Assembly (NCBI GenBank): GCA_047611865.1
Contig: JBLFWS010000001.1
Location: forward strand, 32,001 to 96,000
Source: Chlamydiales bacterium
Lineage (GTDB): Bacteria; Chlamydiota; Chlamydiia; Chlamydiales; JBDQID01
Reading direction: 5' to 3'
Length of the DNA stretch: 64,000 nucleotides
Both the position numbers and the translations under genes were made by a program. Position 1 is the first letter of the stretch. The number at the start of each line of letters is the position of its first letter. The notes below the pieces were generated by a model. The model made no database searches. It was not told where the DNA came from and saw only the letters and a list, made by a program, of their open reading frames with translations. Shown piece by piece: positions 10,634 through 31,014 of the stretch.

Positions 10634-10639
10634 CTACAA

Positions 10640-12196: not shown

Positions 12197-12334
12197 ACCT
12201 TAAATCCTTGAATTCTCTGGCGATGGGTATAAGATAGTTCTCTTCTTGATTATGAATAAACCATTTTTTAATAATAGTCCGCAAGTTTTATTCTCAAGTT
12301 TTCTTTATTGTCCACCTTGCTAAGAGAATCATTT

Positions 12335-13330: not shown

Positions 13331-13633
13331 GTCATCATTCCAGTAAAAGCCAAAGGCTTAAATTAAACTTTTTTGTATATTCCGTACAGCTCCTTTCTTG
13401 CTTCAGTCCCCGAATTCTTAGTTTAATTAGCGAAATTTACGGATATTAACCCATTACAAACCTAGTACATAAACAACTAATAATTAATAGCTTTACTTCA
13501 AACAGGCATTGTTTTATATATAGAATATTTACAACGTGCTATAGTCACTTCACTCCCGACTCCTATCACAATGCTGATAAGAAAAACTTAAAGTACTCAT
13601 TACCAATTAACTACTTAAAAAAAGTGTTTTTTT

Positions 13634-17331: not shown

Positions 17332-17979
17332 ATGATCAATAGCCTTTCAAACTCATTACAAGAATATGAAATCGTTGGCTCAATTCAGGATCGGCGCAAC
17401 GAAGAATTCCCAAAACATTCCGAGTCTTATGGCAATATCATTAATAACTTCCTCAAAGACATGAAACAGCTCGAGAACAAAACTGGCGTTGTTATAGGTG
17501 TCGGCAACAAACAAGCCCAATGGGCAGATAAGGGCTGGGAAACCCTGGATATTGACAGCACATATAACCCTACTTTCGTTATGAGCGCTGACAACATGGT
17601 AGAAATTAAAGATGAAACAAAAGACGTTCTTTTAGCCGAACACCTTCGAATTAGTCGTTTTGTTGATGGCAAGCAACTGCCTGGAGCAAACCCTCAACAG
17701 TTTATCGAAGAAGCTCACCGAATCTTAAAGACAGGCGGCCAACTAATTATTAAAACAGTAGACCATAACGACGGGTTTACTTACGACCCAAACAGTCAGT
17801 CAACTTGGTACACAACTGCCATCCCCAAAAAGAAACTATTCACCGAATGGCTCCAAAAGGACGATAAATTTGATGTCGTAATCTTAAAAGGACAATTTCG
17901 CCAAACCAATGCTATTGTAGGGGAGGGATCAAATATTCCCGCTCAGAGAAAGATCTTTTATATTGCTGAAAAAAAATAG
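17332..17979 (+). CDS. Divergent class I methyltransferase-like protein
   Basis: VIGVGNK, WETLDID, EAHRILKTGGQLII. Confidence 0.55.
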   Translation: MINSLSNSLQEYEIVGSIQDRRNEEFPKHSESYGNIINNFLKDMKQLENKTGVVIGVGNKQAQWADKGWETLDIDSTYNPTFVMSADNMVEIKDETKDVLLAEHLRISRFVDGKQLPGANPQQFIEEAHRILKTGGQLIIKTVDHNDGFTYDPNSQSTWYTTAIPKKKLFTEWLQKDDKFDVVILKGQFRQTNAIVGEGSNIPAQRKIFYIAEKK

Positions 17980-17984
17980 CGTTC

Positions 17985-18299
17985 TTATTCGTTCCCCGTG
18001 GAATCCTCTTGCTGATTTACACCGGAAGAGTCTCTTTCTTCAACAACATGCTCATAAAGCTTTGTATTGGCAGCCCTTTCCAGCTCCTGCCAATAGCCAC
18101 GATCCATCCAACCATGGCTGCCATTCCAATAGCTACAAAACCAAAGTATCCCCCAGATGGGAAGAACTACATAAGTGATCTTCAAAAAAGTCGGGATTCC
18201 GACATCATCAAACTCGTCAACCTCATCCTTGCCAAAATGCACAACATGATGTTGCTCCTCGTGTTGATACTCTTCAAACATCGCCCTTCTCCTTTTCAC
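17985..18299 (-). CDS. Heme-less membrane protein resembling the CcoP/FixP N-terminal domain
   Basis: EVDEFDDVGIPTFLKITY followed by a TM helix resembles the FixP_N pattern (I.EYDNP.P.W); last gene of the operon; no CxxCH. Confidence 0.55.
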   Translation of the reverse strand: MKRRRAMFEEYQHEEQHHVVHFGKDEVDEFDDVGIPTFLKITYVVLPIWGILWFCSYWNGSHGWMDRGYWQELERAANTKLYEHVVEERDSSGVNQQEDSTGNE

Positions 18300-18540
18300 T
18301 TATACTTTCTTCATCCTTCATCATTTGATACTTTGGCTCCTCGTCCATATCCAAACGCCCCTTCCGCCACAAGTAAACGAAAACCAGTAAAGCACTACCC
18401 ACAAAGGCTATTACCATAGAATAGTGCATTACCTCACCACAAACACCACCCCCATCAAGAGGAGTCGAATTAGCAAGCATTTTAAAAGTCATTTGCACGA
18501 TACGTCTATGCCCCCCGGCTCCTGCCTTCAATAATGTCAA
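18274..18540 (-). CDS. CcoS/FixS-like small membrane protein (true start probably downstream, e.g. 18492 or 18429)
   Basis: TM helix then VFVYLWRKGRLDMDEEPKYQM; paralog of 27225-27368. Confidence 0.6.
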   Translation of the reverse strand: MTLLKAGAGGHRRIVQMTFKMLANSTPLDGGGVCGEVMHYSMVIAFVGSALLVFVYLWRKGRLDMDEEPKYQMMKDEESISEKEKGDV

Positions 18541-19789
18541 TCGTACGAACAGGGTCCTTTCCGAGCCACCATGCCTGAGTCGGAGGGGTAATTCTTGTGC
18601 CCTTCGTCATCAAATACTGAAACATCGCCTCAAACTGATAGTTTGGCACCCCAAACGGACTTTTTGAAGTACCCCGAGGGTCTTCATCAAAAAAGTGATG
18701 GAAGGCCGGCATAATAGATCCAGGGCTTTCCGTTTTGGGAGACCAAAAATGTGATTTATGCCAGTCCCGGCTTTGCCGCTTTACCCCAACGCGAGATAAA
18801 TCAGGCCCAATCCGTCTAGTTCCTGGAAAGCTTATATTTTGGTAGATATATTCATTCGGTGAGGATGGAGGAGCAGGAAATGAATCAGAACCATTATGAA
18901 TCGTATCCTGAATTAGTGTACGCGTTTGGTCAGTATGACAATACCAGCATCCTTCCGCAGCAAAGATCCCTTCACCCATCTGAATTAATTCTTTTCGAGA
19001 CAAGAAGCTCAACTTTTCACCTTTCAATTCCTCAAGTCCGTTAATTGAATTTCCATATTTGTCATATTTCCAGCCCTCTTGATTGCCCATCCGAAAATGA
19101 CTAATATGATACTCCTGAGGATTGCTAACGTACAAGACACCTAAGTCTTTGTGATAGTCCTGGCGAACACCCGCATCAATAATTTTGTAGTTCTCATCGA
19201 CCCAGTTTTCTGTAATCCCATCACTGTCATAGATCGCAAACGCTTCTTTCATTCCCGGGTCGTAGAGCTCAAGAATATGAAAAAAAGGCTTACGCTCTCC
19301 TTTGTCTTTCCAGCTAGGATGATGCTGCTCCCAATCAATTTGCAGCTCCTGCTGCAATTTTTCTGCCTCAGTAACTGGGTTATAACTTAGATCTTTCCCA
19401 TTATCCTGAGGATCTCTAAGTAATAGCAAACGAGAACTTAACTTAATTTCTTTCTCTCCCAATTTGGTAATAAAGCGTCTCAATTCTCTTGGGGCCACTA
19501 TTCGAGTAGTTTCTGTCTCTGAAAAATTCAGCAAATCATTATCTTCACGAAGGTGGTATACAGCCTGAATATCCCCACTACCAGTTTGCGCGGTACTAAT
19601 GTAGACGTTCGGGTCTGAGATTTCATACATCTGCTTTTGGTAGACACTGGAAGGCTTTGTCCAGTTTGGATCTACATACCTCGGAGCAATCACTGTCACT
19701 GCTACTGCTGAAGAAAAAAGGAGAACAACTCCAATTACTGTAAGCACGGCAGAGCTCTCTACCTTTCCCATAAATCCATTAGTACTCAT
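18506..19789 (-). CDS. ccoO: cbb3-type oxidase subunit II with a long periplasmic insertion
   Basis: N-terminal TM, EGCWYCHTDQTR, GTRRIGPDLSRVG, PGSIMPAF. Confidence 0.85.
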   Translation of the reverse strand: MSTNGFMGKVESSAVLTVIGVVLLFSSAVAVTVIAPRYVDPNWTKPSSVYQKQMYEISDPNVYISTAQTGSGDIQAVYHLREDNDLLNFSETETTRIVAPRELRRFITKLGEKEIKLSSRLLLLRDPQDNGKDLSYNPVTEAEKLQQELQIDWEQHHPSWKDKGERKPFFHILELYDPGMKEAFAIYDSDGITENWVDENYKIIDAGVRQDYHKDLGVLYVSNPQEYHISHFRMGNQEGWKYDKYGNSINGLEELKGEKLSFLSRKELIQMGEGIFAAEGCWYCHTDQTRTLIQDTIHNGSDSFPAPPSSPNEYIYQNISFPGTRRIGPDLSRVGVKRQSRDWHKSHFWSPKTESPGSIMPAFHHFFDEDPRGTSKSPFGVPNYQFEAMFQYLMTKGTRITPPTQAWWLGKDPVRTIDIIEGRSRGA

Positions 19790-21219
19790 GCTTCTCCGCC
19801 AAGATCTGATTTTTTCATATCCTTTTTCGGATCAAGGATAATGGTATTAAACATATTGACTGCAAACAAAATATTACCCAATAAGATAAGAACCCCTGCT
19901 AAGCCTCTCAAAACCCACCAAACTCTGGACATCTCAATAGTTTGCAGAAATGACAACTGACTGATGTTGTTGTGGAATTCAGCGTAGCTACTCCCATTTG
20001 CCCAAGAAGCCCATTGCATTCCCTGCAAGTAACCTCCAATCCACAAAGCACTAAACATCAACAAAGATCCAGCAAGATTTAGAGTAAAGTGCCAATTAGA
20101 AAGTCTTTCAGACCAAATGGGCTTTTTTGTCATCACATGAACAGAGTGATAAACCCCAGCAATAGCAAAGTATGTAAAAGCTCCGTAGAGGGCCATATGT
20201 GCGTGTCCAATAATCCAATCTGTCTTTGACGTTATTTCATTGACGTTACGCAATGATTGTAAGGGTCCCTGTATACATGTTAGGAGATAAAAGAGCGTTC
20301 CCATCATCAAAAAACGGATCGGAGCACTTTGAGTGTACAAACCCCAATGTCCCTTAAGGGTCATGAAAAAGTTTGCAATTACTGTCCAAACTGGAATAAA
20401 TAACCATATAGAGAAAATAATAGCCACTGTTTGGAGCCACTGTGAAATAGGCCCATGAATAATATGGTGGGCACCTACCCATGCGTAAGTCAACGCTATT
20501 GTCCAAAATCCAATCATAGAAAGTCTGTGACTATATATGGGAACCTTAGCAATTCGTGGGAGAAAGTAATATGCCGCAGCAACACCCATGGGTGTAAATA
20601 TTAAGCCCACAAGGTTGTGTACATAGAAAAATGAAGCATTCACTTTTGATATACCCCCTGGAAGAAATTCCAGGCCAAAATTCCCTATTACAAAAGTAAA
20701 AGTCGTCCAGACCAAGGATCCCATCGTATACCAGAGCGATACATACATCTTCTTAAACTTTCTGTCTGCGATGGTCATGAAAATATTCACGGAAAAAGTA
20801 AGCCAAGCTACGGTAAATATAGCTTTTACCGGTATCCACCCACCAAGCATCATAGGAAGCTCTGCATATTCCCAACCATAGTTTGTCCCAAAGGGAAATG
20901 AGTACACTCCCACTACCAAAGAAAACCACCAAAGAGCACAGGTATAGTTCGCAAGTTTTGTGCTCCATAAGGGTGTTCCACAAAGCCTGGGAACGAAAAA
21001 ATATATTAGTCCAGCGTCTACTGATAGAAGCCACAGTAACGTCACATGACCTACATGTACCGGCCTAAGCCGACCAAAGTGAACATACTCACCTCTGAAA
21101 TAATCAGGAAAAACAAAGCCATTAAAAGAAATGAATACACCCATACTCAAGCCTATCACCAAAAAGATGATGGCAGGATAAATCATTTGCTTTGCAGCCC
21201 TGTCATTAAATTCAATCAT
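19786..21219 (-). CDS. ccoN: cbb3-type heme-copper oxidase subunit I
   Basis: GRLRPVH, EYAELP, YVHNLVG, YAWVGAHH (helix VII Tyr), TDWIIGHAH: all six His ligands present. Confidence 0.9.
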   Translation of the reverse strand: MIEFNDRAAKQMIYPAIIFLVIGLSMGVFISFNGFVFPDYFRGEYVHFGRLRPVHVGHVTLLWLLSVDAGLIYFFVPRLCGTPLWSTKLANYTCALWWFSLVVGVYSFPFGTNYGWEYAELPMMLGGWIPVKAIFTVAWLTFSVNIFMTIADRKFKKMYVSLWYTMGSLVWTTFTFVIGNFGLEFLPGGISKVNASFFYVHNLVGLIFTPMGVAAAYYFLPRIAKVPIYSHRLSMIGFWTIALTYAWVGAHHIIHGPISQWLQTVAIIFSIWLFIPVWTVIANFFMTLKGHWGLYTQSAPIRFLMMGTLFYLLTCIQGPLQSLRNVNEITSKTDWIIGHAHMALYGAFTYFAIAGVYHSVHVMTKKPIWSERLSNWHFTLNLAGSLLMFSALWIGGYLQGMQWASWANGSSYAEFHNNISQLSFLQTIEMSRVWWVLRGLAGVLILLGNILFAVNMFNTIILDPKKDMKKSDLGGEA

Positions 21220-21229
21220 TTGGAACCCC

Positions 21230-24200
21230 TCAAGATCTATCGCTCACAAAAGTCGCAATCTTTTCTTTGTAGTTTTCATATATCTCCGCTTGCTTTGAAC
21301 GAGACTGAGCTGCTAAACGCATCTGTGAAAGCAGTACAGCTTTCATGCCCTTCATTGCTTCAAGCCGCTCTCCAACCTTAGCCAATTCATCACTTCGCTC
21401 AAGAGAGGGTAACTTCCCTCTTAATCTATCCACTTTCCTCTGATTCACATCCACCTGATGATCGAGATCGCGAACAATTTCCTGAGCCTTATTCTGCATA
21501 AAGCGCTCTCGATAAGGATCTTTTTCCATTAGCAAGTCGCCGTTGAGCCTCGTATACCGACCTTTGTTTAAAGCAATGATTTCAAATAATTTCGTGATGA
21601 TTTTTTCATCTGCCTTTTTTGCTATAAATCGCAAGCCAATTTCCGAGTAAAACTTTTGTTCATCGTCGAATTCATCCTTTAAATTCAAGAGAATAGCATC
21701 TACTTCTTTTCGCTTCTTCAAATGATCCATAACTACCAGCTCTTTAGAATAGGACCGAGCAGCTTCTTCTAAAGTAATTGTTCCCTCTTGGGATTTTTCA
21801 TAATTGTCTTGTCTTGCCCGAAGGGCCCGCTTGTATTCCCCCTGCAAAACATTCAGTTTTTTACCTTCAATGTTTCGGGTGTCAGAAATAGCTCTTCCTG
21901 TAGTTTCAAACGCATTAAAAAGAACACTCACCATGTCTTCCCGGTGTTTCTTTTCAACACTCAGACTTCGAATAAACATCACCAACTGAATTCTCTGCAG
22001 TGTATTTGTCTTGTCACCCCACGGGGTCATGGCTGTGCCAGGAACCCCGTATTTAATGGAACGGAGAAGGCGCAAATCATCCCTTGTTTTCAACCAGGGA
22101 AGATTTGTTAGCATGCGGGGCTTGGCCTCCTCCATCGTAGCCGAACGAGGTCCATCTCCAGCTGCTTCCTTTCCATGACAGTGACTACAGTTAGCAAGAA
22201 ACAAGCTCCCACCTTCAGAAATATTTTTCTCTGTATAATACTTCTGCTTTATGAAGAACTCCTTTTCTTCAACTCCCTCAACGGCATCCTTCACATCGAA
22301 AACCTCATCTACTTCCGGGGCTTTCCCTATTTTTTTTTCTTCTGACTTAAAAAACTTTGTGGCTAATAAAAAATTAGGAATAAAGCCTGAGCTCAGTACT
22401 TCACTCATAGAATCATCAACTTTATCTTCTGTCTCACCCTGTAAAACATCTTTTTCTTCATACAGCTCTTTCAAGACATCTTCAGGTGTGTATTTCCATT
22501 TTTCAACATCATTCTCGGACTTAATGACGTGCGCTCCAGGTAAAGACTGAAACAACCAGTCTACAATACGTTCTATTTCTGATTCTTTTAAAAGGGCCGA
22601 GCTATCTCCCAGCTCTGCCGCTGCTGCGGTTTCCCCCCATGGTGGCATGGGGGTGCCCTGAACACCGTGGGTAATTGAATTCACAGCTCTTTCCCGAGTT
22701 AAATTTCTCAAGAAAGTAGCATCTCGAAGATTCTTAGGAATAGGATATATCCATTGAGATACCGTCCCCTTACCGTGAAAATGCTCGCCATGACACTGCA
22801 TACAGTGCCACTCATAAGCCATCGCGGGGTCGAAGCCTCGCTCGTCCCAAATTTCCCGTAAGCTATCTCTATTCTGCTTGCCAAGCACCCGAAGCATATT
22901 TGTCAAAGCATAAAACTTACTTTCATCCAGCGGCATTACAGGCATTATTGATCTTGCTGTATAAGCTGATGGGTTTCGGAAGTGACCTATAAGCCATTCG
23001 TTATCACGATATACACCAGACCAATGCAATCGTGGGGCAATATCTCTACCTAGACCATATTCTTGAATGTACATCATGAACACGCGCTGAACGAGATCTT
23101 TGTAATGTTCATGCTCTTCTAATATTCGGCTTCTTTCAGTAGAGCTTTCCGCTTTTGCGATTAACTGCTCATAATGGTGATTCTTTGCTCTCATTGCATA
23201 TTTGAAAGGGCTATAAAATGAGCTCAAAATCTTTGGAGTCTTTTCCTCAATCTTTTCCAGTATTGAAGACTCACGAACATTTTGAACAATCCGCTTATCA
23301 ATCTCCTGACCCTTTTGGTCAATCATATCGACAATTCGCGAACCAATAAGATCTTCTGGAAACAGCCGGTAGAACCACTGTCGTTCTTTAAATACTTCCT
23401 TAAAAGAAGCCTCTTCTTTCTCTACTCGATAACCAACATTAGACTCAAAACCTTTCAGCCTATGACATGAAGCACAACCCTCATTAGTGTATATGTCCAT
23501 AGCCACTTCCACATCATTCCACTCTGAAACGGGTAGAGGTTTTTCCCAAGCGCGCTTCTTTCCCCCAGCCCACTCCTTGAGAGAAACTTGTGTCAACACT
23601 TCAGAAGTTGTCTTGTCTTCCTTTCTTTGTGCCATCAGAAAGGCTAATAAATCTTCCACTTCCTCATGATCGAGCTTAAAGTTTGGCATTGTTGAAGTTT
23701 TCAAATTCGATTGAGGCCAAACAATTGCCTCTTTGACATACCAAGGATACATCTGTCCAATTTCTGAAAGATCCGGACCCACCTGCCCCCTGGATAAGCC
23801 GCCAATTTTGTGGCAAGCATAACAGGCTGTACTCATGTAAAGCTGCTGTCCTCGAAAGTAACTACCCATTGCATCTTCTGCATCCGACCTTAGGCCATGT
23901 ACTAACTCTTGATCCAATATCGCTGTTTCCAGGGGCGCCTTCACCCTATCCATAAGCTGAATAACCTCACCAGCTTCTTCCATCGCAGCCATTTTAGCAA
24001 AAATACTTCCTGAAATACCCTTTCCATTTGAAACATGTCGAGAGAGAAAACCCAAAAGGGTCTCAGTAGGACTTGAAGCCAACGCTCTGGCTTCTGCCTC
24101 CAACTTTCTCAAATAGATTTCTGAACCCAGAATTTTGGAAATTTCACCATTTATCGCATTTAATACCGCTTCGTCGTCTACATATTTGTCGGTTTTTTGT

Positions 24201-25333
24201 AGGTAGTCCTGAACTCCTGACAAAAGGCTTATTCGAAAAGCAAGAGCTCGCTGCTCCCCTTCACCAAGAGAAATGTCTTGCAATTCCTCACTCATCATCT
24301 CAAGAGTTCTACGGGAGCCTATGTTTTCCAATGAATCTTTTATCTCCAACAAGGCAAATAGCGCCTTTTGGTCGTTAGCAACCCCTTGCCCTATAGCTTC
24401 AGCTTGTTTTTCCTTACGTGTTGTCACAGCTTCAACTGTTGTATACGCCTGTTGAAGCTCTTCTCCACCTGATTGGTGACACTGCGCACACTTTGCCTGC
24501 ATCAATCCGGAAACATAGAGGGGTGTTGTTTGAAAAAGCAGGTGATGTCCCGGCCTGCCATTAAACACTCTGGCCATTGCAGGATCGTTTTCTTCATCAT
24601 TCTCAGTGAAAACTATTTTATGCCCCTCTGAAGACTCTTCATAGGTTCCATCATAAACCGGCCCATGGGCCCTTCCGGATGTAATAGATCGCCCATTACC
24701 ATTGTGACAAACAACACAACCAATTTCATCAGAGGAATGATACTCAAAAGGACGCTCTTCTCTACCAATCAGTGGGTGCATAGCAAGAGCTTTGGTCATA
24801 TCCAGGGAATGCCCATGCTCTTCAATAGATTTCAAATGACTCAGACGTTCAGCCTCATCCAGGCGCCGCTGAATTTCTTCTTCTTCACCATTTTCTCTAA
24901 GCTGTTCTATAAGCTTTTTATCCGTGAGTGACGCTACCTTAGTATCAAGAAGCTTCCATACGTACTCTTCATTTTCGATTTGTACAGGACGGCCATTCTC
25001 TCCGATAATCATGTTGCCATTTATATCATAAGCTATTTTTGTAGGAGAAAAATGACTCAACTTTAAAGCTACATGACATGTGGTACAGCGATCTATAGTT
25101 TCCGGACCTTTGTCTTCCTTGGGGATAACAATCTGTTTAATTCCCAATTTAAAATCAGGGGCCCGTTCACCCGTATGAGTTGAGCGAAATTCCTCAAGAT
25201 CTACATAAGTATTTTGATAGATCTTATATTCGGGAAACATCTCATAGTAGACGAAAACCCCAAATAATAATGCCGATACCACTGATAGAGAAATCAGTAT
25301 TATTTGGTAAATGTCAGCCCGATCAAAACGCAT
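21230..25333 (-). CDS. Membrane-anchored 7-heme cytochrome c (1367 aa)
   Basis: CTTCH, CVVCH, CAQCH, CYACH, CASCH, CMQCH, CSHCH; N-terminal TM; GTPMPPW and GTAMTPW Met ligand motifs. Confidence 0.9.
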   Translation of the reverse strand: MRFDRADIYQIILISLSVVSALLFGVFVYYEMFPEYKIYQNTYVDLEEFRSTHTGERAPDFKLGIKQIVIPKEDKGPETIDRCTTCHVALKLSHFSPTKIAYDINGNMIIGENGRPVQIENEEYVWKLLDTKVASLTDKKLIEQLRENGEEEEIQRRLDEAERLSHLKSIEEHGHSLDMTKALAMHPLIGREERPFEYHSSDEIGCVVCHNGNGRSITSGRAHGPVYDGTYEESSEGHKIVFTENDEENDPAMARVFNGRPGHHLLFQTTPLYVSGLMQAKCAQCHQSGGEELQQAYTTVEAVTTRKEKQAEAIGQGVANDQKALFALLEIKDSLENIGSRRTLEMMSEELQDISLGEGEQRALAFRISLLSGVQDYLQKTDKYVDDEAVLNAINGEISKILGSEIYLRKLEAEARALASSPTETLLGFLSRHVSNGKGISGSIFAKMAAMEEAGEVIQLMDRVKAPLETAILDQELVHGLRSDAEDAMGSYFRGQQLYMSTACYACHKIGGLSRGQVGPDLSEIGQMYPWYVKEAIVWPQSNLKTSTMPNFKLDHEEVEDLLAFLMAQRKEDKTTSEVLTQVSLKEWAGGKKRAWEKPLPVSEWNDVEVAMDIYTNEGCASCHRLKGFESNVGYRVEKEEASFKEVFKERQWFYRLFPEDLIGSRIVDMIDQKGQEIDKRIVQNVRESSILEKIEEKTPKILSSFYSPFKYAMRAKNHHYEQLIAKAESSTERSRILEEHEHYKDLVQRVFMMYIQEYGLGRDIAPRLHWSGVYRDNEWLIGHFRNPSAYTARSIMPVMPLDESKFYALTNMLRVLGKQNRDSLREIWDERGFDPAMAYEWHCMQCHGEHFHGKGTVSQWIYPIPKNLRDATFLRNLTRERAVNSITHGVQGTPMPPWGETAAAAELGDSSALLKESEIERIVDWLFQSLPGAHVIKSENDVEKWKYTPEDVLKELYEEKDVLQGETEDKVDDSMSEVLSSGFIPNFLLATKFFKSEEKKIGKAPEVDEVFDVKDAVEGVEEKEFFIKQKYYTEKNISEGGSLFLANCSHCHGKEAAGDGPRSATMEEAKPRMLTNLPWLKTRDDLRLLRSIKYGVPGTAMTPWGDKTNTLQRIQLVMFIRSLSVEKKHREDMVSVLFNAFETTGRAISDTRNIEGKKLNVLQGEYKRALRARQDNYEKSQEGTITLEEAARSYSKELVVMDHLKKRKEVDAILLNLKDEFDDEQKFYSEIGLRFIAKKADEKIITKLFEIIALNKGRYTRLNGDLLMEKDPYRERFMQNKAQEIVRDLDHQVDVNQRKVDRLRGKLPSLERSDELAKVGERLEAMKGMKAVLLSQMRLAAQSRSKQAEIYENYKEKIATFVSDRS

Positions 25334-25348
25334 TATCGTCTCCCACCA

Positions 25349-26674
25349 TTAGTGTCTTGCAAAGTTCTCCGTCCATGGCCAAATCCATCCCCAGTTTGCC
25401 CCTCTGAAGTACGTTCCAATTATTACCAGGATTCCCTGTGTCGTCATAAAAAACGTGTACAAAAATATCGCCATATATCGGCTGCGGTGATACCACACGC
25501 CTGATCCATAGGGATTTCTATCAAGATAAGGGACTACCATAAGCCCCACAACAATTAACCCTGGTATTCCTACACCACCCCAGAAAGCACTATAAGCAAC
25601 CATCTCTTGAAGACCCAGAAAATACCACGGAGCCTTTGAGGGATTGGGGGGTTTTGTTGCGTTCGCCGCCTCTTCCAATGGTGCATCTATAAATGATAAA
25701 ATCATGATCAAAACTACGGTAAACATAAATGCAATTAACTCGGCACGAAGAAGGTGCGGCCAAGTAAATATGTAGTTATATGGTCCCCTATCAACAGTGG
25801 GACACGTCCCTCTAACAAGCTCCATTAAGCCGTAGGTTCTGCGAACCCCCGGCGCAAAAGTCTCCTTAGTATCCGATCTTTGTACAACACGATAGGGTTC
25901 TGGTGAAACTTTGTCCGGAGGACGCGCCAAGCCACCATCTTTTCTAATACGCCAGAAGTGTACTCCTATTAAAATCCCCGCGGCAAGGGGGAGCACCATC
26001 ACGTGAAGTACGTAAAATCGTATGAGTGCATCTTGTCCAACGCTGGTGGACGCAATAAGCATAATACGGTTAATGTTGTGTTCCATTCCGGGTATTCCCG
26101 GAGCATAGCCAGCAATTTCAGATCCTACAGTTACCGCCCAAAATGCCAGCTGATCCCAAGGAAGAAGGTATCCAGTAAAAGACAGCAGGAGGGTAAGCAC
26201 CATTAGAATCACGCCAATTACCCAGTTAAATCTTCTTTCTCCTTTATAGGAACCCATATAGAAGACACGCGACATATGGAGAAAGACGAACAACACCATC
26301 ATGTGTGCACCCCAGCGGTGCAAATTACGAAACATCTGAGCGAAAGGCGTCACATCCTGCCAGTCTTTCATAATGTCGTAAGCCCTGTCTTCTGCAGGCA
26401 CATAATAAAACATAAGCACCACACCAGTGATCACCAGTGTAATAAACAGGCTCATCGTAATGGAGCCGAGACCCAAAGTCTTGAAAAAATCCGTTGTGCT
26501 TTTGTGACATTTCACCGGGTGAATATGAAGGAAGAAGTTCTTAAAAACAATTTCTGATCGGTCAACATCATTGTTGGGATAACCATGACGAAAGATGGAA
26601 CGTACCACTAGTTTAGGAAGGTTCTCTAGGTACTCCAACCAGGTCTCTCTCTTTTCCCCTTTAAAAACTGCCAT
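25349..26674 (-). CDS. Cytochrome b of a Rieske/cyt b complex (b6-like part fused to a subunit IV-like part)
   Basis: RNLHRWGAH...LHMSRVF, FTGYLLPWDQ, FYVLH-x14-H, and KAPWYF at the Qo motif. Confidence 0.9.
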   Translation of the reverse strand: MAVFKGEKRETWLEYLENLPKLVVRSIFRHGYPNNDVDRSEIVFKNFFLHIHPVKCHKSTTDFFKTLGLGSITMSLFITLVITGVVLMFYYVPAEDRAYDIMKDWQDVTPFAQMFRNLHRWGAHMMVLFVFLHMSRVFYMGSYKGERRFNWVIGVILMVLTLLLSFTGYLLPWDQLAFWAVTVGSEIAGYAPGIPGMEHNINRIMLIASTSVGQDALIRFYVLHVMVLPLAAGILIGVHFWRIRKDGGLARPPDKVSPEPYRVVQRSDTKETFAPGVRRTYGLMELVRGTCPTVDRGPYNYIFTWPHLLRAELIAFMFTVVLIMILSFIDAPLEEAANATKPPNPSKAPWYFLGLQEMVAYSAFWGGVGIPGLIVVGLMVVPYLDRNPYGSGVWYHRSRYMAIFLYTFFMTTQGILVIIGTYFRGANWGWIWPWTENFARH

Positions 26675-26712
26675 GTGCTTACGCTCTCCTCAAAACATCT
26701 TCATTGTGCTGT

Positions 26713-27228
26713 CTAAACATACCATGCAACCTGTGGATCGTGTATTAGTTTTGTTTTATCTGCCAGAAGTTCTCCTGACGCTCCTTTTGAAACATTAAAA
26801 TATACCAATGGGCTAGGAGCAGGCCCTCCCGTATTAAAGCCATTCCGATCATATGTTGATCCGTGACATGGACATTGATATCCTGTTTCTACAGCGTTAA
26901 CAGTGCAGCCCAAGTGAGTACAAACTGCCGTTTGAACACGTACTTTTCCAGAAACCACCTCAACAAAACACTTGAACTTCTCCAGAAAAACCTTTCCCTC
27001 TGTTGCCAGAACATCCTCTGGCCTTCCAATTGAAAAAACGCTAGGCGGAATTTTCAGAGCGTTAGGGTAAAGAAAACCCATAAGCGCAACACTCACAGCT
27101 CCTCCAACACCCATACACACACCCGTTCCCATCAAGGCAAGAAAAGTCCTTCTTGTAATTTTTGGGTCATTGCTCTTAGGATCCACGTTTAATGAATTTC
27201 GAAACCTAGGCATAACACCCTCCTTCAT
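26713..27228 (-). CDS. Rieske 2Fe-2S protein
   Basis: CTHLGC and CPCHGSTY boxes, GPAPSPL; twin-arginine TRRTFL followed by a TM helix. Confidence 0.92.
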   Translation of the reverse strand: MKEGVMPRFRNSLNVDPKSNDPKITRRTFLALMGTGVCMGVGGAVSVALMGFLYPNALKIPPSVFSIGRPEDVLATEGKVFLEKFKCFVEVVSGKVRVQTAVCTHLGCTVNAVETGYQCPCHGSTYDRNGFNTGGPAPSPLVYFNVSKGASGELLADKTKLIHDPQVAWYV

Positions 27229-27368
27229 TCTCCATTTTGTTCCTCATCACGAAACATCTGGTATTTAACATCTTCCAAATCATCGAACTGCCCTTTTTTC
27301 CAAAAATAGACAAAGACTCCAGTCGCCGCTAACCCACCAATTAATGTCGCTGCAAGATATACTACCAC
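27225..27368 (-). CDS. ccoS: CcoS/FixS-like 47-aa membrane peptide (not in ORF track)
   Basis: GTG start after GAAGGGG; MVVYLAATLIGGLAATGVFVYFWKKGQFDDLEDVKYQMFRDEEQNGE; its stop overlaps the Rieske ATG (ATGA). Confidence 0.75.
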   Translation of the reverse strand: MVVYLAATLIGGLAATGVFVYFWKKGQFDDLEDVKYQMFRDEEQNGE

Positions 27369-27385
27369 TCCATCGCCCCTTCATA

Positions 27386-29218
27386 CTATCCAATCCACCG
27401 AAAAGAGTAATTCATCGTATCCATTGTAACAGCTTGAGTAGGACATTTTTCGGCACACAACCCACAACGTATACAAAGGTCTTCATCTTTCAACATTGCA
27501 GACCCTGCTGTATTAAGTTCTTCAGCTGTCATTTCAGAAGAATCGAATCCATAGTTATTGTCCACAGCTTTACGCATATTGCCCTCTCCCCAATCCAAGT
27601 TCAATTTCGATAAAGGTATCAACGTAAGACAATTTGTAGGGCAAACATCTACACAACCATTACATTTTATACAAAGAGATCCATCAAATACTGGACTTAC
27701 ATGACACTGTAAACAACGACTTGCTTGCTGATGCGCCTCTTCTGCAGTATAAGGATTTTCAACAATATTTAGATTTTTCCGCCTCTCCTCTGCCGGCTGA
27801 AGAGAAGGAAGAGACCATTTTGTACTCAGGTATTCTTTATCTCGCATAGGTGGAATTGTTCTGAACTCTCCAACGAACTCCTGGTAAGGCTTTGTTCCTC
27901 TCAAATCACTGTCAATAGCCCTTGCAGATTCTTGCCCATGACGTATTGCTGTAATGAACAACGCAGGCCCATATCCGGCATCCCCCCCACAATAAATCCC
28001 ATTTACAGATGTTCTACCAGTTCCTCTTTCTACTTTTATAATTCCCCTTTCAAGGGTAAGGTCAGCTTTCTTGTCCCACCCGTCAAAAAGACTCGTATCC
28101 ATTCCCTGGCCGATAGCTAAAGCTATGGTATCACAAGGCACAACATACTCTGTTCCTTCAACAAACTCGGGTGAAAAACCCCCTTTATGATTAAAAAGTC
28201 GAGAGATCTTCTGTACACGCAGCCCAATAATCTTCCCGTCGCTGTCACGTTCCACCGCCTTTGGACCTAGCCTGTTGAGGACCTCAATTCCCTCTTCAAG
28301 CGCATCTTCAATCTCAAATTCATCAGCTGTTTGTTCATCTCGAGATTCCAGGCAAACCAGAGTAACCTTATCAGCTCCATTGCGTATAGAAGACCGCGCC
28401 ACATCGTAAGATACGTTACCCCCACCAACAACGACTATATGATTACCTATTCTCCATTTCCCCCCGCCCGTAATCACCTTAAGATACTCTACGCCTCTGA
28501 TTATGTCTGCCTGGTCTGTTCCGGGAATGGGTAACTCTCGGGACTTCCATAAACCATTGCCGATAAAAATCGCGTCATACTTTTCCTGCATTTCAGTAAT
28601 CGTTATATCTCGGCCAACTTTCGTATTATAGTGGATATTAGCGCCCAAGTATTCTATCGCATAGCATTCGTTGATGATTACATCATTTTTCAGTCTGTAA
28701 TTGGGGACACCATAGGTTAACATCCCCCCTGGCATACTCATCATTTCATAAATATCGACAGAATATCCCAAGCGAAGAAGGTCGTGTGCTGCCGTTAACG
28801 AGGCCACTCCCGCCCCTATGCAACCCACCTTCATTCCATTCGGTTTTGGGTTGGTCGTTCCACGTGAGTAGCTAAATTCCAGAGCTTTAATGTGAGCTTC
28901 CTTATCCACCCCGAACCACTCATCGAGAAAACGTTTTTGTGCACGAATGGTAAGAGTTTTATCTACTCGATCTCTCCGACAGGCTGTTTCACAGGGAGCC
29001 CCGCATATCCATCCACAGATAGACGCGAAAGGATTAGGCCCTCGAGCAATTTTATAACCCTCCAAAAGGTTACCTGCTTGTAACGCAAGCATATACCCTC
29101 GAGCATCTGTATTAACAGGACATCCGTCGCGACAGTCGATTTGTTTCAGATAATAATCTAGATCTGGAATAACAACGTCATAACTATCTTTATAGATATC
29201 AACCAGCTCTTTTGACAC
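27386..29218 (-). CDS. GltD/NfnB-like FAD/NAD(P) oxidoreductase with an extra C-terminal 2x[4Fe-4S] domain
   Basis: CRDGCP, ICGWICGAPCETAC, IGAGVAS, VGGGNVSYD, CIKCNGCVDVCP, CIRCGLCAEKCP; GTG start. Confidence 0.85.
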   Translation of the reverse strand: MSKELVDIYKDSYDVVIPDLDYYLKQIDCRDGCPVNTDARGYMLALQAGNLLEGYKIARGPNPFASICGWICGAPCETACRRDRVDKTLTIRAQKRFLDEWFGVDKEAHIKALEFSYSRGTTNPKPNGMKVGCIGAGVASLTAAHDLLRLGYSVDIYEMMSMPGGMLTYGVPNYRLKNDVIINECYAIEYLGANIHYNTKVGRDITITEMQEKYDAIFIGNGLWKSRELPIPGTDQADIIRGVEYLKVITGGGKWRIGNHIVVVGGGNVSYDVARSSIRNGADKVTLVCLESRDEQTADEFEIEDALEEGIEVLNRLGPKAVERDSDGKIIGLRVQKISRLFNHKGGFSPEFVEGTEYVVPCDTIALAIGQGMDTSLFDGWDKKADLTLERGIIKVERGTGRTSVNGIYCGGDAGYGPALFITAIRHGQESARAIDSDLRGTKPYQEFVGEFRTIPPMRDKEYLSTKWSLPSLQPAEERRKNLNIVENPYTAEEAHQQASRCLQCHVSPVFDGSLCIKCNGCVDVCPTNCLTLIPLSKLNLDWGEGNMRKAVDNNYGFDSSEMTAEELNTAGSAMLKDEDLCIRCGLCAEKCPTQAVTMDTMNYSFRWIG

Positions 29219-29436
29219 AGTAATCCCCTTGACATCATTTTCTTTTCAAAACCCTATCAAATATTTCTGTTTTTTAAAATCGTTTTCCAAAATATTGTTT
29301 TTAAAGCGCCTATCAAACCCCGCCTCTTCGCGACGATCTCGAAAGACAAGCCCTTCCCCTCCTGCCTCGACAGAAACAATTGATAAACATATACTCAAGA
29401 TTGAGTTTTTGATTCAATATCATAAGGAATTGTTTT

Positions 29437-31014
29437 ATGCATCTTGTCATAGTCAACACCAGTTCCAAGGGTGGAAAAGAGTTACAAACCGCTCTACTGC
29501 AGGAATCTTACAAAGATGGGAACGATCTAAAAACACGCACCATTGCCAAGCTCATGGAGTGTACGGAAGATGAGATCCATGCTGTACAGATGGCATTCCA
29601 ACACAAAGACAAAATGCTTAAACTGAACCTTCCTAAACTACCGTCAAATACACACAGCCCTCAAGTTCTTAAACAAAACACTCCCATTGGGGCCGCATGG
29701 GTTGCAAAATCCGTCGCAGAATACTTAGGTATCGCTGATGCCCTTGGCACAACAAAGCCTGGTAAATTAGCCCTGCTCCAAATTTTGTCTCATGTTGTTG
29801 AACCCACCCTATACCCCCTTTCCAGGTTTGCTGAACAAACTCATTATTTAATTAACTCTCTTGACCTCCCCATCGACATTGATGCAAAAGACCTTCACAG
29901 AGACCTGACATGGTTATCGAAAAACAAGTCCAAAATAGAAAAGAGAATATTCAAGTTTCGCACCAAGGGGGTTTCTGACCGCCTTTTCTTTTACAATATC
30001 TCCAGCCCATACCTCTCCACCCGCCTGAACCCTCTTGAAATTTTTGAACGAAACCTAGATCAAAGTCACTTCCCGGGGCTGGGTCTTCTATGTGATCAAG
30101 AAGGCTACCCCGTATCCATTTGCCTACCTAATCCAGAGAAAAACCAAACAGTGCTTGATAATGCTCTAAAATTAGCCAAAGACTACTCCGTAGATTCTGT
30201 TACAGTTGTACGTCATAACTCCAGCTCTATGGAAAAAGATAACATCCCTCAGGTTGCAAACTATCTTTCACATGTCACCTCTCCCGAAGACATAGCGTTC
30301 CTCAAAGCACACATACTCCTGGATAAAGTTGAAGACCTTAGTCTCACAAAAAGAAACGACCACAAACACTTTCTTATCAAAAGGGACCCAAAGCGCTCGA
30401 AAATTCTTAAAGAAATGCGCGAAGACCAGCTCAAGCATGCTGAACTACTCATCAATAAAGCTAACGAAAAGCTTAAAGAACAACCCACATCTTCAACAAC
30501 AATTTTACAAAGCCTCCAGAGGGCCATCGAAAACATTGGAGGCTCTGAATGGCTTAAGGTACAAGAGTCTGATGTGGGGTTTATCCATGAAGTCAACCAG
30601 GAAAAGCTCAATGAATTTTCCACCTTAGACGGCTGTCAGATTTTGGAATCCAACCTCCCTTTTAGCGGCACTTCACCAGAAATCCTTTTGGATCGCTTTA
30701 AAAACCAAAAACTTATCGAAGAAGCCTTTCGTAACCACAGCCCTGGTTTCCACGACCTCGAGCTTGCCGATAGCCTCTTAGAAAGCACCCTTCGAGGACA
30801 CTCCTTGTTGCTAATGCTCGCCTTTCTCATTAACCGCACCCTCGGAAAGGCCTGGTCTCCCTTGGGCGTTACTCCCGAGGAGGGATTAAGGGAGCTTTCT
30901 GGTATCTGTTCAATGAATATCGGAAACAAAACCTACATAACAGAGCCCAACAAAGCCACCCAGCAACTTCTTGAAGCCTTAAACCTTAAACTACCCACTC
31001 AGACAGACTTATGA
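29437..31014 (+). CDS. IS1634-family transposase-derived protein, catalytic residues apparently lost
   Basis: RTIAKL, GLLCDQEGYPVS, LDGCQILESNL, LIEEAFR and RGHSLLLMLAFLI match recalled IS1634 patterns; no terminal repeats seen. Confidence 0.65.
   Translation: MHLVIVNTSSKGGKELQTALLQESYKDGNDLKTRTIAKLMECTEDEIHAVQMAFQHKDKMLKLNLPKLPSNTHSPQVLKQNTPIGAAWVAKSVAEYLGIADALGTTKPGKLALLQILSHVVEPTLYPLSRFAEQTHYLINSLDLPIDIDAKDLHRDLTWLSKNKSKIEKRIFKFRTKGVSDRLFFYNISSPYLSTRLNPLEIFERNLDQSHFPGLGLLCDQEGYPVSICLPNPEKNQTVLDNALKLAKDYSVDSVTVVRHNSSSMEKDNIPQVANYLSHVTSPEDIAFLKAHILLDKVEDLSLTKRNDHKHFLIKRDPKRSKILKEMREDQLKHAELLINKANEKLKEQPTSSTTILQSLQRAIENIGGSEWLKVQESDVGFIHEVNQEKLNEFSTLDGCQILESNLPFSGTSPEILLDRFKNQKLIEEAFRNHSPGFHDLELADSLLESTLRGHSLLLMLAFLINRTLGKAWSPLGVTPEEGLRELSGICSMNIGNKTYITEPNKATQQLLEALNLKLPTQTDL

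Follow-up and report, generated by a model that had tools for sequence, protein, structure and literature searches.

Why does a chlamydial operon for quinol oxidation and oxygen reduction begin with a cytoplasmic pyridine-nucleotide flavoprotein, and in which direction might electrons pass between the two? In the window, a 64,000-nucleotide stretch of Chlamydiales DNA, positions 17985-29218 hold nine minus-strand genes in the same direction (A-I), every joint being an overlap or a gap of at most 38 nt. The first-pass annotation had described a co-oriented, closely spaced nine-gene operon, and both the coordinates and the domain calls bear it out:

27386..29218, minus strand: A, NfnB/GltD-like FAD flavoprotein (610 aa; Pfam, NCBIfam, solved relatives)
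27225..27368, minus strand: B, FixS/CcoS-like protein with a single TM helix, between the flavoprotein and Rieske genes (47 aa; Pfam FixS)
26713..27228, minus strand: C, Rieske [2Fe-2S] protein (171 aa; Pfam Rieske)
25349..26674, minus strand: D, fused cytochrome b6-like and subunit-IV-like protein (441 aa; Pfam PF00033, NCBIfam)
21230..25333, minus strand: E, membrane-anchored heptahaem cytochrome c (1367 aa; CxxCH motifs, Pfam)
19786..21219, minus strand: F, CcoN, catalytic subunit of a cbb3-type haem-copper oxidase (477 aa; COX1)
18506..19789, minus strand: G, CcoO-like monohaem subunit (427 aa; FixO)
18274..18492 (ORF to 18540), minus strand: H, second FixS-like single-TM protein, start uncertain (BLASTP to B)
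17985..18299, minus strand: I, single-TM protein resembling the CcoP/FixP N terminus, no haem domain (104 aa; FixP_N matches in its family)
29219..29436, no strand: divergent intergenic region upstream of A, presumed promoter region (218 nt; coordinates)

Operon structure and gene content

By coordinates, the gaps are 17 nt (A-B), 38 nt (C-D), 15 nt (D-E) and 10 nt (E-F), with 4-nt overlaps at B-C and F-G; the G-H gap is 13-25 nt if H begins at the internal ATGs suggested by its homologs, and H and I overlap by 8-26 nt. The block is bounded, because the genes on either side (17332-17979 and 29437-31014) lie on the plus strand. No promoter element was found in the divergent region, where sigma-70-like sites numbered 22 against a mean of 24.6 in shuffled controls. 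The nine-gene order is not a chance arrangement, for it recurs across dozens of genomes whose proteins are 40-82% identical.

The flavoprotein A combines the Pfam domains Fer4_20 (PF14691) and Pyr_redox_2 (PF07992) with two C-terminal 4Fe-4S motifs (PF00037), and scores 400 bits against NCBIfam PRK12771, under the cut-off of 516. Sixteen conserved cysteines provide for four Fe-S clusters, including a 2x[4Fe-4S] domain at the C terminus, intact Rossmann motifs for NAD(P) are present, and a scan of the protein found no TM helix or hydrophobic segment. Solved relatives are 9bov_A (E 3e-82), 8oh5_C, 9n5u_A, 4ylf_B and 5jca_L, the best being NfnABC (9bov/9bp5). Among 142 linked flavoproteins, R501, C502 and C505 are kept in 141 and Glu291 in all, at a place occupied by YRR in five NADPH-type solved relatives. 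Because Glu291 stands in for the Arg pair of these relatives, NAD(H) is the more likely nucleotide of A than NADP(H), the Glu/Arg criterion being a general rule rather than a measurement. The NAD(P)(H) arm proposed earlier is modified to that extent.

The Rieske protein C has a twin-arginine N terminus with a TM anchor and the cluster boxes CTHLGC and CPCHGSTY. Its best solved relatives, over residues 65-161, are 9rk3_A (Kustd1480, E 4.9e-17) and 9rk4_A (Kuste4569, E 8.3e-15). Ser-x-Tyr follows CPCHG in 72/72 chlamydial loci scanned, and both residues are the same in Kuste4569; the link of Ser and Tyr to Rieske potential is likewise a general rule and not a measurement. In D, Cytochrome_B (PF00033) covers residues 66-246 and an ExtQ/subunit-IV-like part residues 301-434, with NCBIfam scores under cut-off for both ExtP (244 bits) and ExtQ (72 bits). 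Residues 69-247 align to b6 of 7r0w and 6rqf with the four haem histidines conserved, and all of 33 sequences compared share H50, H119, H133, H224 and H239. Gly68 occupies the b6 Cys35 position, and the canonical haem cN cysteine is missing; a cysteine stands in this column in 0/76 flavoprotein-linked cytochromes b versus 11/19 flavoprotein-less relatives.

Such flavoprotein-less Rieske/cytochrome b pairs share 43-50% identity with D and retain His50, and in the phylum of the L098 genome 19 of the 20 related Rieske/cytochrome b loci examined have no flavoprotein within ~8 kb. Since related pairs occur without it, the flavoprotein is an add-on within the cytochrome b clade of D. By the same comparison, His50, put forward by Hauser et al. 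(PMC12954380) as ligand of an extra haem, is not restricted to flavoprotein-bearing complexes, because the flavoprotein-less relatives retain it.

Cytochrome E carries seven CxxCH motifs (residues 83, 206, 282, 504, 620, 844 and 1049) behind one N-terminal TM helix (11-29), arranged in CcoP-like and class I cytochrome c modules, and ends in a charged haem-free tail (~1130-1367). Pfam matches comprise Cytochrom_C, three copies of Cytochrome_CBB3 and a FixO fragment; 6h5l_B is the sole solved match, and nearly all homologs have seven motifs at lengths of 898-1426 aa. The genome has no stand-alone CcoP gene, the best TIGR00782 match being E itself (25.9 bits, cut-off 179.95).

The oxidase subunit F matches COX1 (E 8e-78) and TIGR00780 ccoN (264.7 bits, under the cut-off of 583), and its alignment to 3mk7_A (residues 12-459, E 7.8e-60) shows identical His and Tyr in the columns RPxH, HN, Y..W.G.HH and GH.H. 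In G, the FixO match (E 4.5e-22) spans only residues 268-370 around a single CxxCH at residue 281, and an insert of ~230 aa separates this haem domain from the TM anchor (6-24); homologs measure 373-481 aa with one haem motif each. The small protein B matches Pfam FixS (E 3.5e-6; 27.1 bits, cut-off 23.1), recurs at the same position in chlamydial loci and in L089, and persists in loci that have lost A, C, D and E. The earlier labels for the last two genes hold indirectly. H, annotated as CcoS-like, lacks a Pfam match of its own but is paralogous to B (BLASTP E 6e-12, with 53% identity across 34 aa) and is conserved after CcoO in chlamydial loci. For I, annotated as CcoP-N-like, the window copy has no match to Pfam families, whereas 10/32 family members match FixP_N (best E 1.8e-5); the family shares invariant G50, W58, G60, G63, G68 and W70, and the TM helix of I lies at 37-55.

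Elsewhere in the genome, the search for cytochrome c maturation genes suggested by the first-pass annotation was successful, yielding a System II set of two CcsA/ResC-like and one ResB-like proteins. The quinone is probably menaquinone, since MenD and MenB score above cut-off, Mqn genes are absent and UbiG does not reach its cut-off. The genome also carries Na+-NQR (NqrB present), cytochrome bd and a small monohaem cytochrome c ORF (C30), because of which the chain need not be fully hard-wired.

Conservation and linkage of the flavoprotein

In a 301-genome sample of the phylum, the flavoprotein was found in 65 genomes, the D-type cytochrome b in 67 and CcoN in 72. A-B-C-D are adjacent in 60/62 other chlamydial loci, the remaining two contigs ending after C, and all nine genes are collinear in 51. 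No genome in the sample has a D-type cytochrome b on an uncut contig without A, and A, C and D were lost together in four loci (L070, L071, L072 and L074). Between chlamydial families A is 70-78% identical, a level similar to that of cytochrome b. In family f4, with genomes of 1.0-1.3 Mb, we found the flavoprotein in 0/30, the D-type cytochrome b in 1 doubtful case of 29 and CcoN in 0/30.

Linkage extends to other phyla, in which 68/70 flavoprotein homolog loci adjoin Rieske and/or cytochrome b genes and contig ends truncate the remaining two; among genomes sampled from the L098 phylum, 28/29 full-length A matches lie within 7 kb of a D match. The earlier guess that similar loci exist in other environmental chlamydiae was correct, and co-conservation of the flavoprotein with the bc genes, set beforehand as a test, is seen in both groups of loci. 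The combination of flavoprotein, bc and cbb3 genes is not specific to chlamydiae, occurring also in Ignavibacteriota and Acidobacteriota. In other phyla the module precedes high-potential terminal enzymes, namely cbb3, NosZ with NosD, cd1 NirS or a molybdopterin enzyme. Modules beside nosZ, nirS or molybdoenzyme genes (L155, L138, L148, L097, L119, L123, L124, L151) contain the same four-gene set with a flavoprotein 34-42% identical to A, but differ in terminal enzyme, haem number and gene order, and their cytochrome b is often split. Depictions of clade II nos clusters have included Rieske, cytochrome b and 'Fe-S' genes. In the flavoprotein tree, sequences group by terminal partner, one branch (SH-aLRT 85) setting the cbb3-linked sequences apart and the Mo-linked clade having support of 100; the grouping of cbb3-linked with chlamydial sequences (85) sits on a long branch of 1.61.

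Relation to known respiratory complexes

Rieske/cytochrome b complexes of anammox bacteria that include an NAD(P) oxidoreductase subunit were reportedly described by Kartal et al. 2013 and de Almeida et al. 2016. The parallel drawn in the first-pass annotation proved sound, C being closest to Kustd1480/Kuste4569 and A, like the Kuenenia subunit, to NfnABC. As here, the Kuenenia stuttgartiensis clusters Kuste4569-4574 and Kustd1480-1485 bring together genes for a Rieske protein, for a b6-like cytochrome b that has a subunit-IV-like portion, for a multihaem cytochrome c replacing cytochrome f and for a cytoplasmic NfnB-like FAD/Fe-S subunit, and C shares with them the Ser (and Tyr) motif of high-potential Rieske proteins. 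In contrast to Kuenenia, cytochrome b and subunit IV are fused here, there are seven haems, and the terminal partner is a cbb3 O2 reductase instead of an HAO-like octahaem protein; the host is a microaerobic or aerobic symbiont, that of Kuenenia an anaerobic autotroph. Compared by description, Glu291 points to NAD rather than NADP, and the haem cN cysteine is absent here, in contrast to the Kuenenia model of Hauser et al. 2025 (PMC12954380). For the Kuenenia complexes the same paper proposes NAD(P)+ reduction by bifurcation, with +303 and +335 mV measured, names NfnABC as the structure nearest to the flavoprotein subunit, and describes models in which the four clusters line up as a single unbranched chain between the membrane and FAD. 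The operon can be seen as an oxygen-linked cousin of the anammox complexes, and could make their proposed chemistry testable.

Compared with canonical cbb3 CcoNOQP (Pseudomonas stutzeri 3mk7/5djq) and its assembly protein CcoS/FixS, the operon keeps a CcoN alignable over its full length with the metal-ligand columns preserved, a monohaem CcoO domain and FixS-like small proteins. It differs in that the dihaem CcoP is missing, only its N-terminal membrane part remaining as gene I, in the ~230-aa insert of CcoO, in having two FixS-like genes, one of them among the bc genes, and in a CcoN under the NCBIfam equivalog cut-off (264.7 versus 583). Solved bc1-cbb3 supercomplexes (6xkw/6xkx/6xkz, 8smr/8snh, 9g83) match both cytochrome b and CcoN. 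In these, a complex III-type enzyme and a cbb3 oxidase form one unit, as their counterparts here may. The solved assemblies have a cytochrome b of the bc1 type and a cytochrome c1, are encoded in separate operons and use monohaem carriers that are either soluble or anchored in the membrane; none is known to have a flavoprotein or a heptahaem wire. The actinobacterial bcc-aa3 supercomplex (PMC4505504) reportedly likewise wires complex III to the oxidase by a multihaem cytochrome c, with no soluble cytochrome c and in a menaquinone organism, but has an aa3 oxidase, a dihaem QcrC and no flavoprotein; this likeness is an analogy, the wires not being homologous.

Proposed electron flow and alternatives

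We propose that the operon encodes a hard-wired menaquinol-to-O2 unit with a low-potential branch to NAD+, a reading that we hold tentatively and that, direction included, falls somewhat short of an even chance. Menaquinol would be oxidised at the outer (P-side) quinol site of the b6f-type Rieske/cytochrome b complex (C and D). The high-potential electron would pass from the Rieske cluster to the membrane-anchored heptahaem cytochrome E, which would replace cytochrome f/c1, the soluble carrier and CcoP, and on to the CcoN/CcoO oxidase (F and G with the small subunits B, H and I) for O2 reduction. The low-potential electron would cross the pair of b haems, where the canonical cysteine for haem cN is lacking, to cytoplasmic A on the N-side of the cytochrome b dimer, and from there run through four Fe-S clusters and FAD to NAD+. 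NADH may re-enter the chain via Na+-NQR, a recycling loop through which the large menaquinol-to-O2 potential gap would be used more fully. The proposal starts from what the sequences show in gene content and order, co-conservation, cofactor motifs and resemblance to the Kuenenia complexes, and infers physical association, flow direction, NAD preference and the recycling loop. In its favour count the close packing of the genes, the joint occurrence of A with cytochrome b within and beyond chlamydiae, the sorting of the flavoprotein tree by terminal partner, the Rieske box, the probable menaquinone, the motifs of A and D, the lack of a CcoP gene, the presence of NqrB and, weakly, complex prediction.

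The need for NAD+ reduction is not obvious, because the organism is presumably a heterotrophic symbiont with ample NADH, and the direction of electron flow is not readable from sequence. The related pairs that lack a flavoprotein, the departure from the Kuenenia model at the cN cysteine and the long branch in the flavoprotein tree also weigh against the proposal. The main rival, which we consider rather unlikely, reverses that flow: A would oxidise NADH and pass electrons through its Fe-S clusters to the N-side of cytochrome b, reaching haem bN, an extra haem or a bound quinone, much as FNR/ferredoxin is proposed to feed b6f during cyclic flow. On this view the nine genes would encode a compact chain from NADH to O2, with an NDH-2-like input on a bc-oxidase unit. 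Such a path is downhill throughout, most carriers appear to be heterotrophs, Glu291 suits NAD(H) as the usual respiratory donor, and GltD-type relatives, going by the names of the solved matches of A, oxidise pyridine nucleotides. Hauser et al. (PMC12954380) consider this option too, but object that energy would be wasted. Against it, the canonical b6f N-side site needs haem cN, whose cysteine occurs in none of the 76 linked cytochromes b, Na+-NQR already serves NADH oxidation in this genome, and the flavoprotein lineage would track the terminal enzyme without reason. An attached A might instead have a cytoplasmic partner other than pyridine nucleotide alone, exchanging electrons with ferredoxin or flavodoxin, or might itself be a second, flavin-based bifurcation site like NfnB; this corresponds to the ferredoxin chemistry of the first-pass annotation. 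The closest solved relatives, bifurcating Nfn/Stn-type subunits, and the extra C-terminal 2x[4Fe-4S] ferredoxin-like domain would fit this, but the operon holds no NfnA-like or ferredoxin gene, the Rossmann motifs are intact, and the Kuenenia models (PMC12954380) have a single four-cluster chain to FAD; we regard it as improbable.

It seems to us probable that A transfers electrons as a subunit of the complex, in whichever direction. The contrary reading, to which we give a similarly small chance as to a ferredoxin partner, makes A a soluble enzyme merely co-transcribed and exchanging no electrons with cytochrome b, such as a GltD/SudA-type reductase, a redox sensor or an oxidase assembly or protection factor. 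It would explain the lack of a TM helix and the generic database family names (formate dehydrogenase beta, glutamate synthase small chain, sulfide dehydrogenase), and complex prediction does little to oppose it: two copies of cytochrome b with A residues 493-610 scored 0.35, against 0.00 for the best of three controls. Runs agreed in at least 70% of contacts, with a partner pLDDT of at least 66. The mark used was reached by 116/157 solved complexes and 2/215 mismatched pairs, and at 0.60 or less only 18 of those 157, but both passing mismatches, reached it; the predicted contact of the C-terminal domain with the cytochrome b dimer is thus weakly supported. A soluble A is harder to square with its adjacency to Rieske/cytochrome b genes beside any terminal enzyme in chlamydial and other-phylum loci alike, its joint loss with C and D and its cytochrome b-like identity across chlamydial families. 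It also fits poorly with Kuenenia, whose subunits reportedly co-migrate in a complexome study cited by Hauser et al. (PMC12954380).

Operon organization and gene content

An ORF listing placed nine minus-strand genes at 17985-29218, with a plus-strand gene on either side, gaps of at most 38 nt between neighbors and overlaps at three junctions. The gene list of the first-pass annotation proved correct overall, with qualifications for the last two genes. H, which has no Pfam match, proves paralogous to B, at 53% identity across 34 aa (E 6e-12). The window's own copy of I is likewise unmatched in Pfam, FixP_N being matched by 10 of the 32 members of the I family.

Table. Genes of the operon (17985-29218, minus strand), in order, with supporting databases in brackets.
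A: NfnB/GltD-like flavoprotein with an extra C-terminal 2x[4Fe-4S] domain (Pfam, NCBIfam)
B: 47-aa FixS-like protein (Pfam, NCBIfam)
C: Rieske protein (Pfam, NCBIfam)
D: 25349-26674, fused cytochrome b6/subunit-IV-like protein; top NCBIfam models ExtP and ExtQ, each below cut-off
E: cytochrome c of 1367 aa; seven CxxCH motifs, one transmembrane helix
F: CcoN (Pfam, NCBIfam)
G: 427-aa CcoO with one CxxCH motif and a large insert; the FixO match covers residues 268-370 only (E 4.5e-22)
H and I: small membrane proteins, one gene each

Promoter-like sites showed no excess between 17000 and 30000 (22 against a shuffled mean of 24.6), and the 16 terminator-like sites in the same interval, against 10.3 (sd 4.0) after shuffling, were not counted as one. 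For positions 19300-29290 no RNA run is listed; the nine DNA runs are ice or seawater metagenomes, three of which may be where this DNA came from. A 525-aa ORF without any Pfam family (29437-31014, plus strand) diverges from the operon.

Sequence features of the respiratory subunits

The flavoprotein A combines PF14691 and PF07992 and aligns with solved relatives 4ylf_B (E 1.4e-68) and 5jca_L (E 7.7e-56), sharing with NfnB/GltD small subunits the N-terminal two-cluster domain and the FAD and NAD(P) Rossmann domains. It has no transmembrane helix, 16 conserved cysteines and the invariant residues R501, C502 and C505, and the operon holds no NfnA or GltB partner gene. Unlike the NADPH-dependent members of this group, A lacks the YRR arginine pair: at the end of beta-2 of the nucleotide domain it reads LESR, where five NADPH-type solved relatives read YRR, whose arginines are expected to bind the 2'-phosphate. 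By the general Rossmann-fold rule, a glutamate in place of these arginines points to NAD(H) as the nucleotide that A would use.

The best solved relatives of the Rieske protein C are 9rk3 and 9rk4, identified in PMC12954380 as Kustd1480 and Kuste4569 of the anammox bacterium Kuenenia. In its motif CPCHGSTY, C carries a Ser and a Tyr after CPCHG, as Kuste4569 does. This arrangement occurs in 72 of 72 chlamydial loci scanned and the LESR-column glutamate of A in 142 of 142 aligned homologs from flavoprotein-Rieske-cytochrome b loci, although some chlamydial genomes are counted twice in these figures and the locus sets may overlap. In other phyla, Ser-x-Phe follows CPCHG in 59 cases and Ser-x-Tyr in five, one sequence being without a match.

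Residues 69-247 of cytochrome b (D) can be aligned to solved b6 chains, and all four haem histidines are conserved; these four and His50 are invariant in 33 cytochrome b sequences. His50 is also present in all 76 cytochromes b from flavoprotein-linked loci, and Gly68 aligns with b6 Cys35. At residues 347-351, the P-side quinol-site motif reads K-A-P-W-Y in place of PEWY, invariantly in the 33 sequences, and the usual acidic residue is missing.

The oxidase subunit F aligns with P. stutzeri CcoN (3mk7_A) with identical ligand columns, which we take to be the histidine ligands of haem b, haem b3 and CuB and the helix-7 tyrosine. Like canonical cbb3 oxidases, the operon thus keeps the CcoN ligands and places a monohaem CcoO next to CcoN; unlike them, it comes from a genome in which we found no dihaem CcoP, and I resembles FixP_N only.

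Conservation among chlamydiae

Across a phylum sample of 301 genomes, all from the same order, we found the flavoprotein in 65, CcoN in 72 and a CcsA-type protein in 84. All flavoprotein genomes but one (64 of 65) have the CcsA-type protein, and the one that lacks a match is 88% complete. Cytochrome b was matched in 70 of 300 genomes and belonged to the high-identity type in 67; of the other three matches, two lie at 37-38% identity (family f7) and one at 29% with seven TGA stops. A shares 74-76% identity with proteins assigned to Parachlamydia acanthamoebae, Protochlamydia, Candidatus Rubidus and Chlamydiae MAGs.

The first-pass annotation had joined the flavoprotein to the bc genes, and gene neighborhoods bear this out. 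Among 62 loci taken around high-identity flavoprotein matches, leaving out the split or truncated matches of two genomes (G167, G230), A-B-C-D are adjacent in 60, and in the other two the contig ends after C. The complete nine-gene order is collinear in 51 of the 62, the remainder being mostly cut by contig ends or missing the tiny H in the tblastn search. E varies in length from 898 to 1426 aa and carries seven haem motifs in nearly all loci.

Exceptional loci show A, C and D to be gained and lost as a block, and E to be able to remain with the oxidase. In L070 (genome G055, 9080-9970), A and C are short pseudogene relics, D and E are deleted, and intact copies of B, F, G, H and I remain, which leaves the cbb3 oxidase without an evident electron donor. 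L071 and L074 carry only B-F-G-H-I, L072 carries B-E-F-G-H-I and L073 only F. In L033 (genome G195, 7279-9948), A-E are intact, while ccoN and ccoO are split across frames with stop codons, which could reflect oxidase decay or assembly indels. L029 (genome G147, 8008-13613) has about 5.6 kb between the heptahaem gene and ccoN, unlike every other locus. The loci L077 (genome G062) and L078 (genome G269), both of family f7, encode a different cytochrome b (37-38%) without the N-terminal LH motif, with a CcsA-like gene nearby and no flavoprotein.

Distribution and partners in other phyla

Within a set of 1.84 billion representative proteins, all chlamydial flavoproteins fell into one 50% cluster, with the next relatives at most 45% identical. 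An alignment of flavoprotein relatives, used to scan one genome per species, yielded 80 loci, 70 of them non-chlamydial. Carriers include Acidobacteriota, Chloroflexota, Ignavibacteriota, Calditrichota, Planctomycetota, Verrucomicrobiota, Lentisphaerota, Myxococcota, Bacteroidota, Zixibacteria, Eisenbacteria and others. In 68 of the 70 non-chlamydial loci the flavoprotein gene adjoins a Rieske gene, a cytochrome b gene or both, and usually a multihaem cytochrome comes next; the other two loci are cut by contig ends.

The genes that follow this module differ between loci. CcoN/CcoO were found in six (L089, L098, L107, L112, L117, L145), and ten carry a molybdopterin oxidoreductase together with an Fe-S subunit. 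NosZ with NosD was found in three (L155, L138, L148) and NosD in L131. Cytochrome cd1 NirS was confirmed by Pfam in L097, and L104 has a tblastn match only. Other tblastn matches to NirS that lay within multihaem ORFs were set aside as cytochrome-domain cross-matches, and a molybdoenzyme match at position 59 of L097 was left uncounted, being upstream of the module.

A tree of 77 flavoproteins sorts by terminal partner. The cbb3-linked sequences lie on one side of a branch with SH-aLRT 85, the molybdoenzyme-linked ones form a clade with support 100, and a long branch (1.61) leads to the chlamydial clade. As relatives share partner labels, this sorting represents clustering, not independent co-evolution. 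One chlamydial locus, L066, on a 4.5-kb contig (C155) of genome G199, holds a second flavoprotein-Rieske-cytochrome b copy, divergent at 38-45% identity, that falls in the molybdoenzyme-linked clade and may be a second complex or contamination. In two loci from other phyla (L092, 8343-8942; L140, 8379-8966), the gene immediately upstream of that for the flavoprotein encodes a plastocyanin/azurin-like or CarboxypepD_reg-domain protein.

Related complexes without the flavoprotein

A second sample covered 101 genomes of the phylum of the cbb3-linked locus L098. Of these, 60 yielded a related cytochrome b, a count that includes the unpublished genome G325, and 28 of 29 full-length flavoprotein matches among those scored lay within 7 kb of a cytochrome b match. 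Many of these genomes have the cytochrome b without a flavoprotein match, in a search that scored no more than 12 of as many as 44 candidates in each genome, and absence here means not found with the query used. Direct inspection of 20 such loci showed Rieske and cytochrome b genes with no flavoprotein within about 8 kb in 19. The flavoprotein is thus always accompanied by a bc complex of this kind, and the converse is false.

The residue aligned with His50 is a histidine in 19 of 19 flavoprotein-less cytochromes b, ruling out His50 as a marker of flavoprotein-bearing complexes. A cysteine occupies the b6 Cys35 column in 11 of these 19 relatives but in none of the 76 flavoprotein-linked cytochromes b. 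Loss of the haem cN cysteine therefore goes with the flavoprotein in the sample, in which the eleven cysteine carriers are probably close kin.

Comparison with the Kuenenia complexes

The operon resembles the anammox Rieske/cytochrome b complexes with an NAD(P) oxidoreductase subunit in several respects. Both clusters combine a Rieske protein, a b6-like cytochrome b and a subunit-IV-like part, together with a conserved NfnB/GltD-like subunit bearing FAD and multiple [4Fe-4S] clusters, and in both a multihaem cytochrome c (six or more haems; seven CxxCH here) replaces cytochrome f/c1. The Rieske serine (and tyrosine) hydrogen-bond donors linked to a high potential are shared too, on the chlamydial side as read from the sequence. 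The two differ at the haem cN cysteine, which is modelled for Kuenenia, whereas D has Gly68. The N-terminal cytochrome b histidine proposed as a ligand of an extra b haem in Kuenenia (Kuste4571 His43) may correspond to His50.

For two Kuenenia complexes, Hauser et al. 2025 (PMC12954380) propose that NAD(P)+ reduction is driven by bifurcation at the quinol site, give Rieske potentials of +303 and +335 mV, and present AlphaFold3 models in which four Fe-S clusters form a chain and an extra b haem is proposed. Parachlamydia and Waddlia cytochromes b were grouped with Kuenenia complexes 1 and 2 by Baymann et al. 2012 (PMC3509893), and Dharamshi et al. 2023 (PMC9816063) name CcoN/O and PetBD among chlamydial respiratory genes. 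Within the literature open to our search, which did not extend to key subscription papers, we found no account of a flavoprotein in the chlamydial bc-cbb3 operon. Kartal et al. 2013, ten Brink et al. 2013, Dibrova et al. 2013 and de Almeida et al. 2016 may already cover the wider distribution of flavoprotein-bearing complexes.

Respiratory context in the genome

The assembly comprises 3.59 Mb in 272 contigs and is 95.5% complete with 2.5% contamination. The first-pass annotation had called for a search for cytochrome c maturation genes, and this recovered a System II set of two CcsA/ResC-type proteins and one ResB-like protein. The quinone is probably menaquinone, given that adjacent MenD and MenB genes score above cut-off, that neither MqnA/D nor an above-cut-off UbiG was found in the genome, and that the MqnC-like match is weak. 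NqrB and CydA are present, and NuoD was not found in the genome. In the search for CcoP in this 95.5% complete genome, the best TIGR00782 match was E itself, at 25.9 bits against a cut-off of 179.95. An additional small cytochrome c ORF lies on contig C30; two CxxCH motifs on contig C54 were discarded as belonging to DnaJ.

Subunit association and direction of electron flow

The gene-level evidence supports a single respiratory unit in which A would be a subunit attached to cytochrome b from the cytoplasmic side. A structure prediction with two cytochrome b chains and flavoprotein residues 493-610 scored 0.35, against 0.00 for the best of three controls, with contact agreement between runs of at least 70% and partner pLDDT of at least 66. 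Of 157 solved complexes, 116 pass the mark applied, as do 2 of 215 mismatched pairs, and scores at or below 0.60 include only 18 of the 157 solved complexes and both passing mismatches. The model thereby lends weak support to an association between A and cytochrome b.

Within such a unit, E would wire the bc complex to the CcoP-less cbb3 oxidase, quinol oxidation would drive NAD+ reduction with O2 as the driving acceptor, and the NADH could re-enter through Na+-NQR. The main rival is the opposite flow, in which the flavoprotein oxidizes NADH. We favor quinol-driven NAD+ reduction over it, as a high-potential acceptor accompanies the module in every case and the flavoprotein lineage follows that acceptor. 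The same direction is suggested by the Rieske motif, which in combination with menaquinone would create the energetic mismatch measured in Kuenenia, and by a b6f-type N-side site without the cN cysteine.

In its most general form, quinol-driven NAD+ reduction would be the work of a modular flavoprotein-Rieske/cytochrome b unit in menaquinone bacteria of many phyla, plugged into whichever high-potential reductase is present: cbb3 for O2, NosZ for N2O, cd1 NirS for nitrite, or a molybdoenzyme. The low-potential electron would go to NAD+ and not into a Q cycle, and recycling of the NADH through Na+-NQR or complex I would move more ions per electron, the chlamydial operon being the aerobic form, an O2-driven quinol-bifurcating NAD+ reductase. 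We put this forward tentatively, as a possible scheme that is less likely than not to hold as a whole.

Whether Rieske/cytochrome b complexes make NAD(P)H by quinol bifurcation has been an open question since the anammox proposal, and anammox bacteria are slow-growing and hard to work with. The operon combines genes for such a complex with those for an ordinary O2 reductase; it occurs across a whole clade, cultured Parachlamydia-type symbionts among its members, and in other phyla alongside other terminal enzymes. With O2 driving the reaction, assays should become simpler, and Glu291 of A, the loss of the cN cysteine and the loss of CcoP offer comparative handles. If the bifurcating reading is true, the anammox hypothesis could be tested in cultured amoeba symbionts with O2 as the sole acceptor. 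For chlamydial biology, the complex III and cbb3 genes named in an evolutionary reconstruction (PMC9816063) would constitute one unit with a third component, the overlooked flavoprotein, beside Na+-NQR and cytochrome bd in the chlamydial respiratory chain.

Additional observations

On contig C185 (6.8 kb) of the window's genome, a 272-aa ORF with seven CxxCH motifs (L161:230-1045) matches DmsE/MtrA-type decahaem families and neighbors a small cytochrome c encoded by a 113-aa ORF; the pair could be contamination, estimated at 2.5%, or a second multihaem system. At about 40000-42000 in the window, the GC skew flips from about -0.2 to about +0.2 and the cumulative skew reaches its minimum, which may mark a replication origin or terminus. 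A 585-aa protein at 15398-17155 (minus strand) has C-terminal ankyrin repeats and a sub-threshold match to the YopT-like Peptidase_C58 family (E 1.2e-4; 22.3 bits, the cut-off being 23), and may be effector-like.
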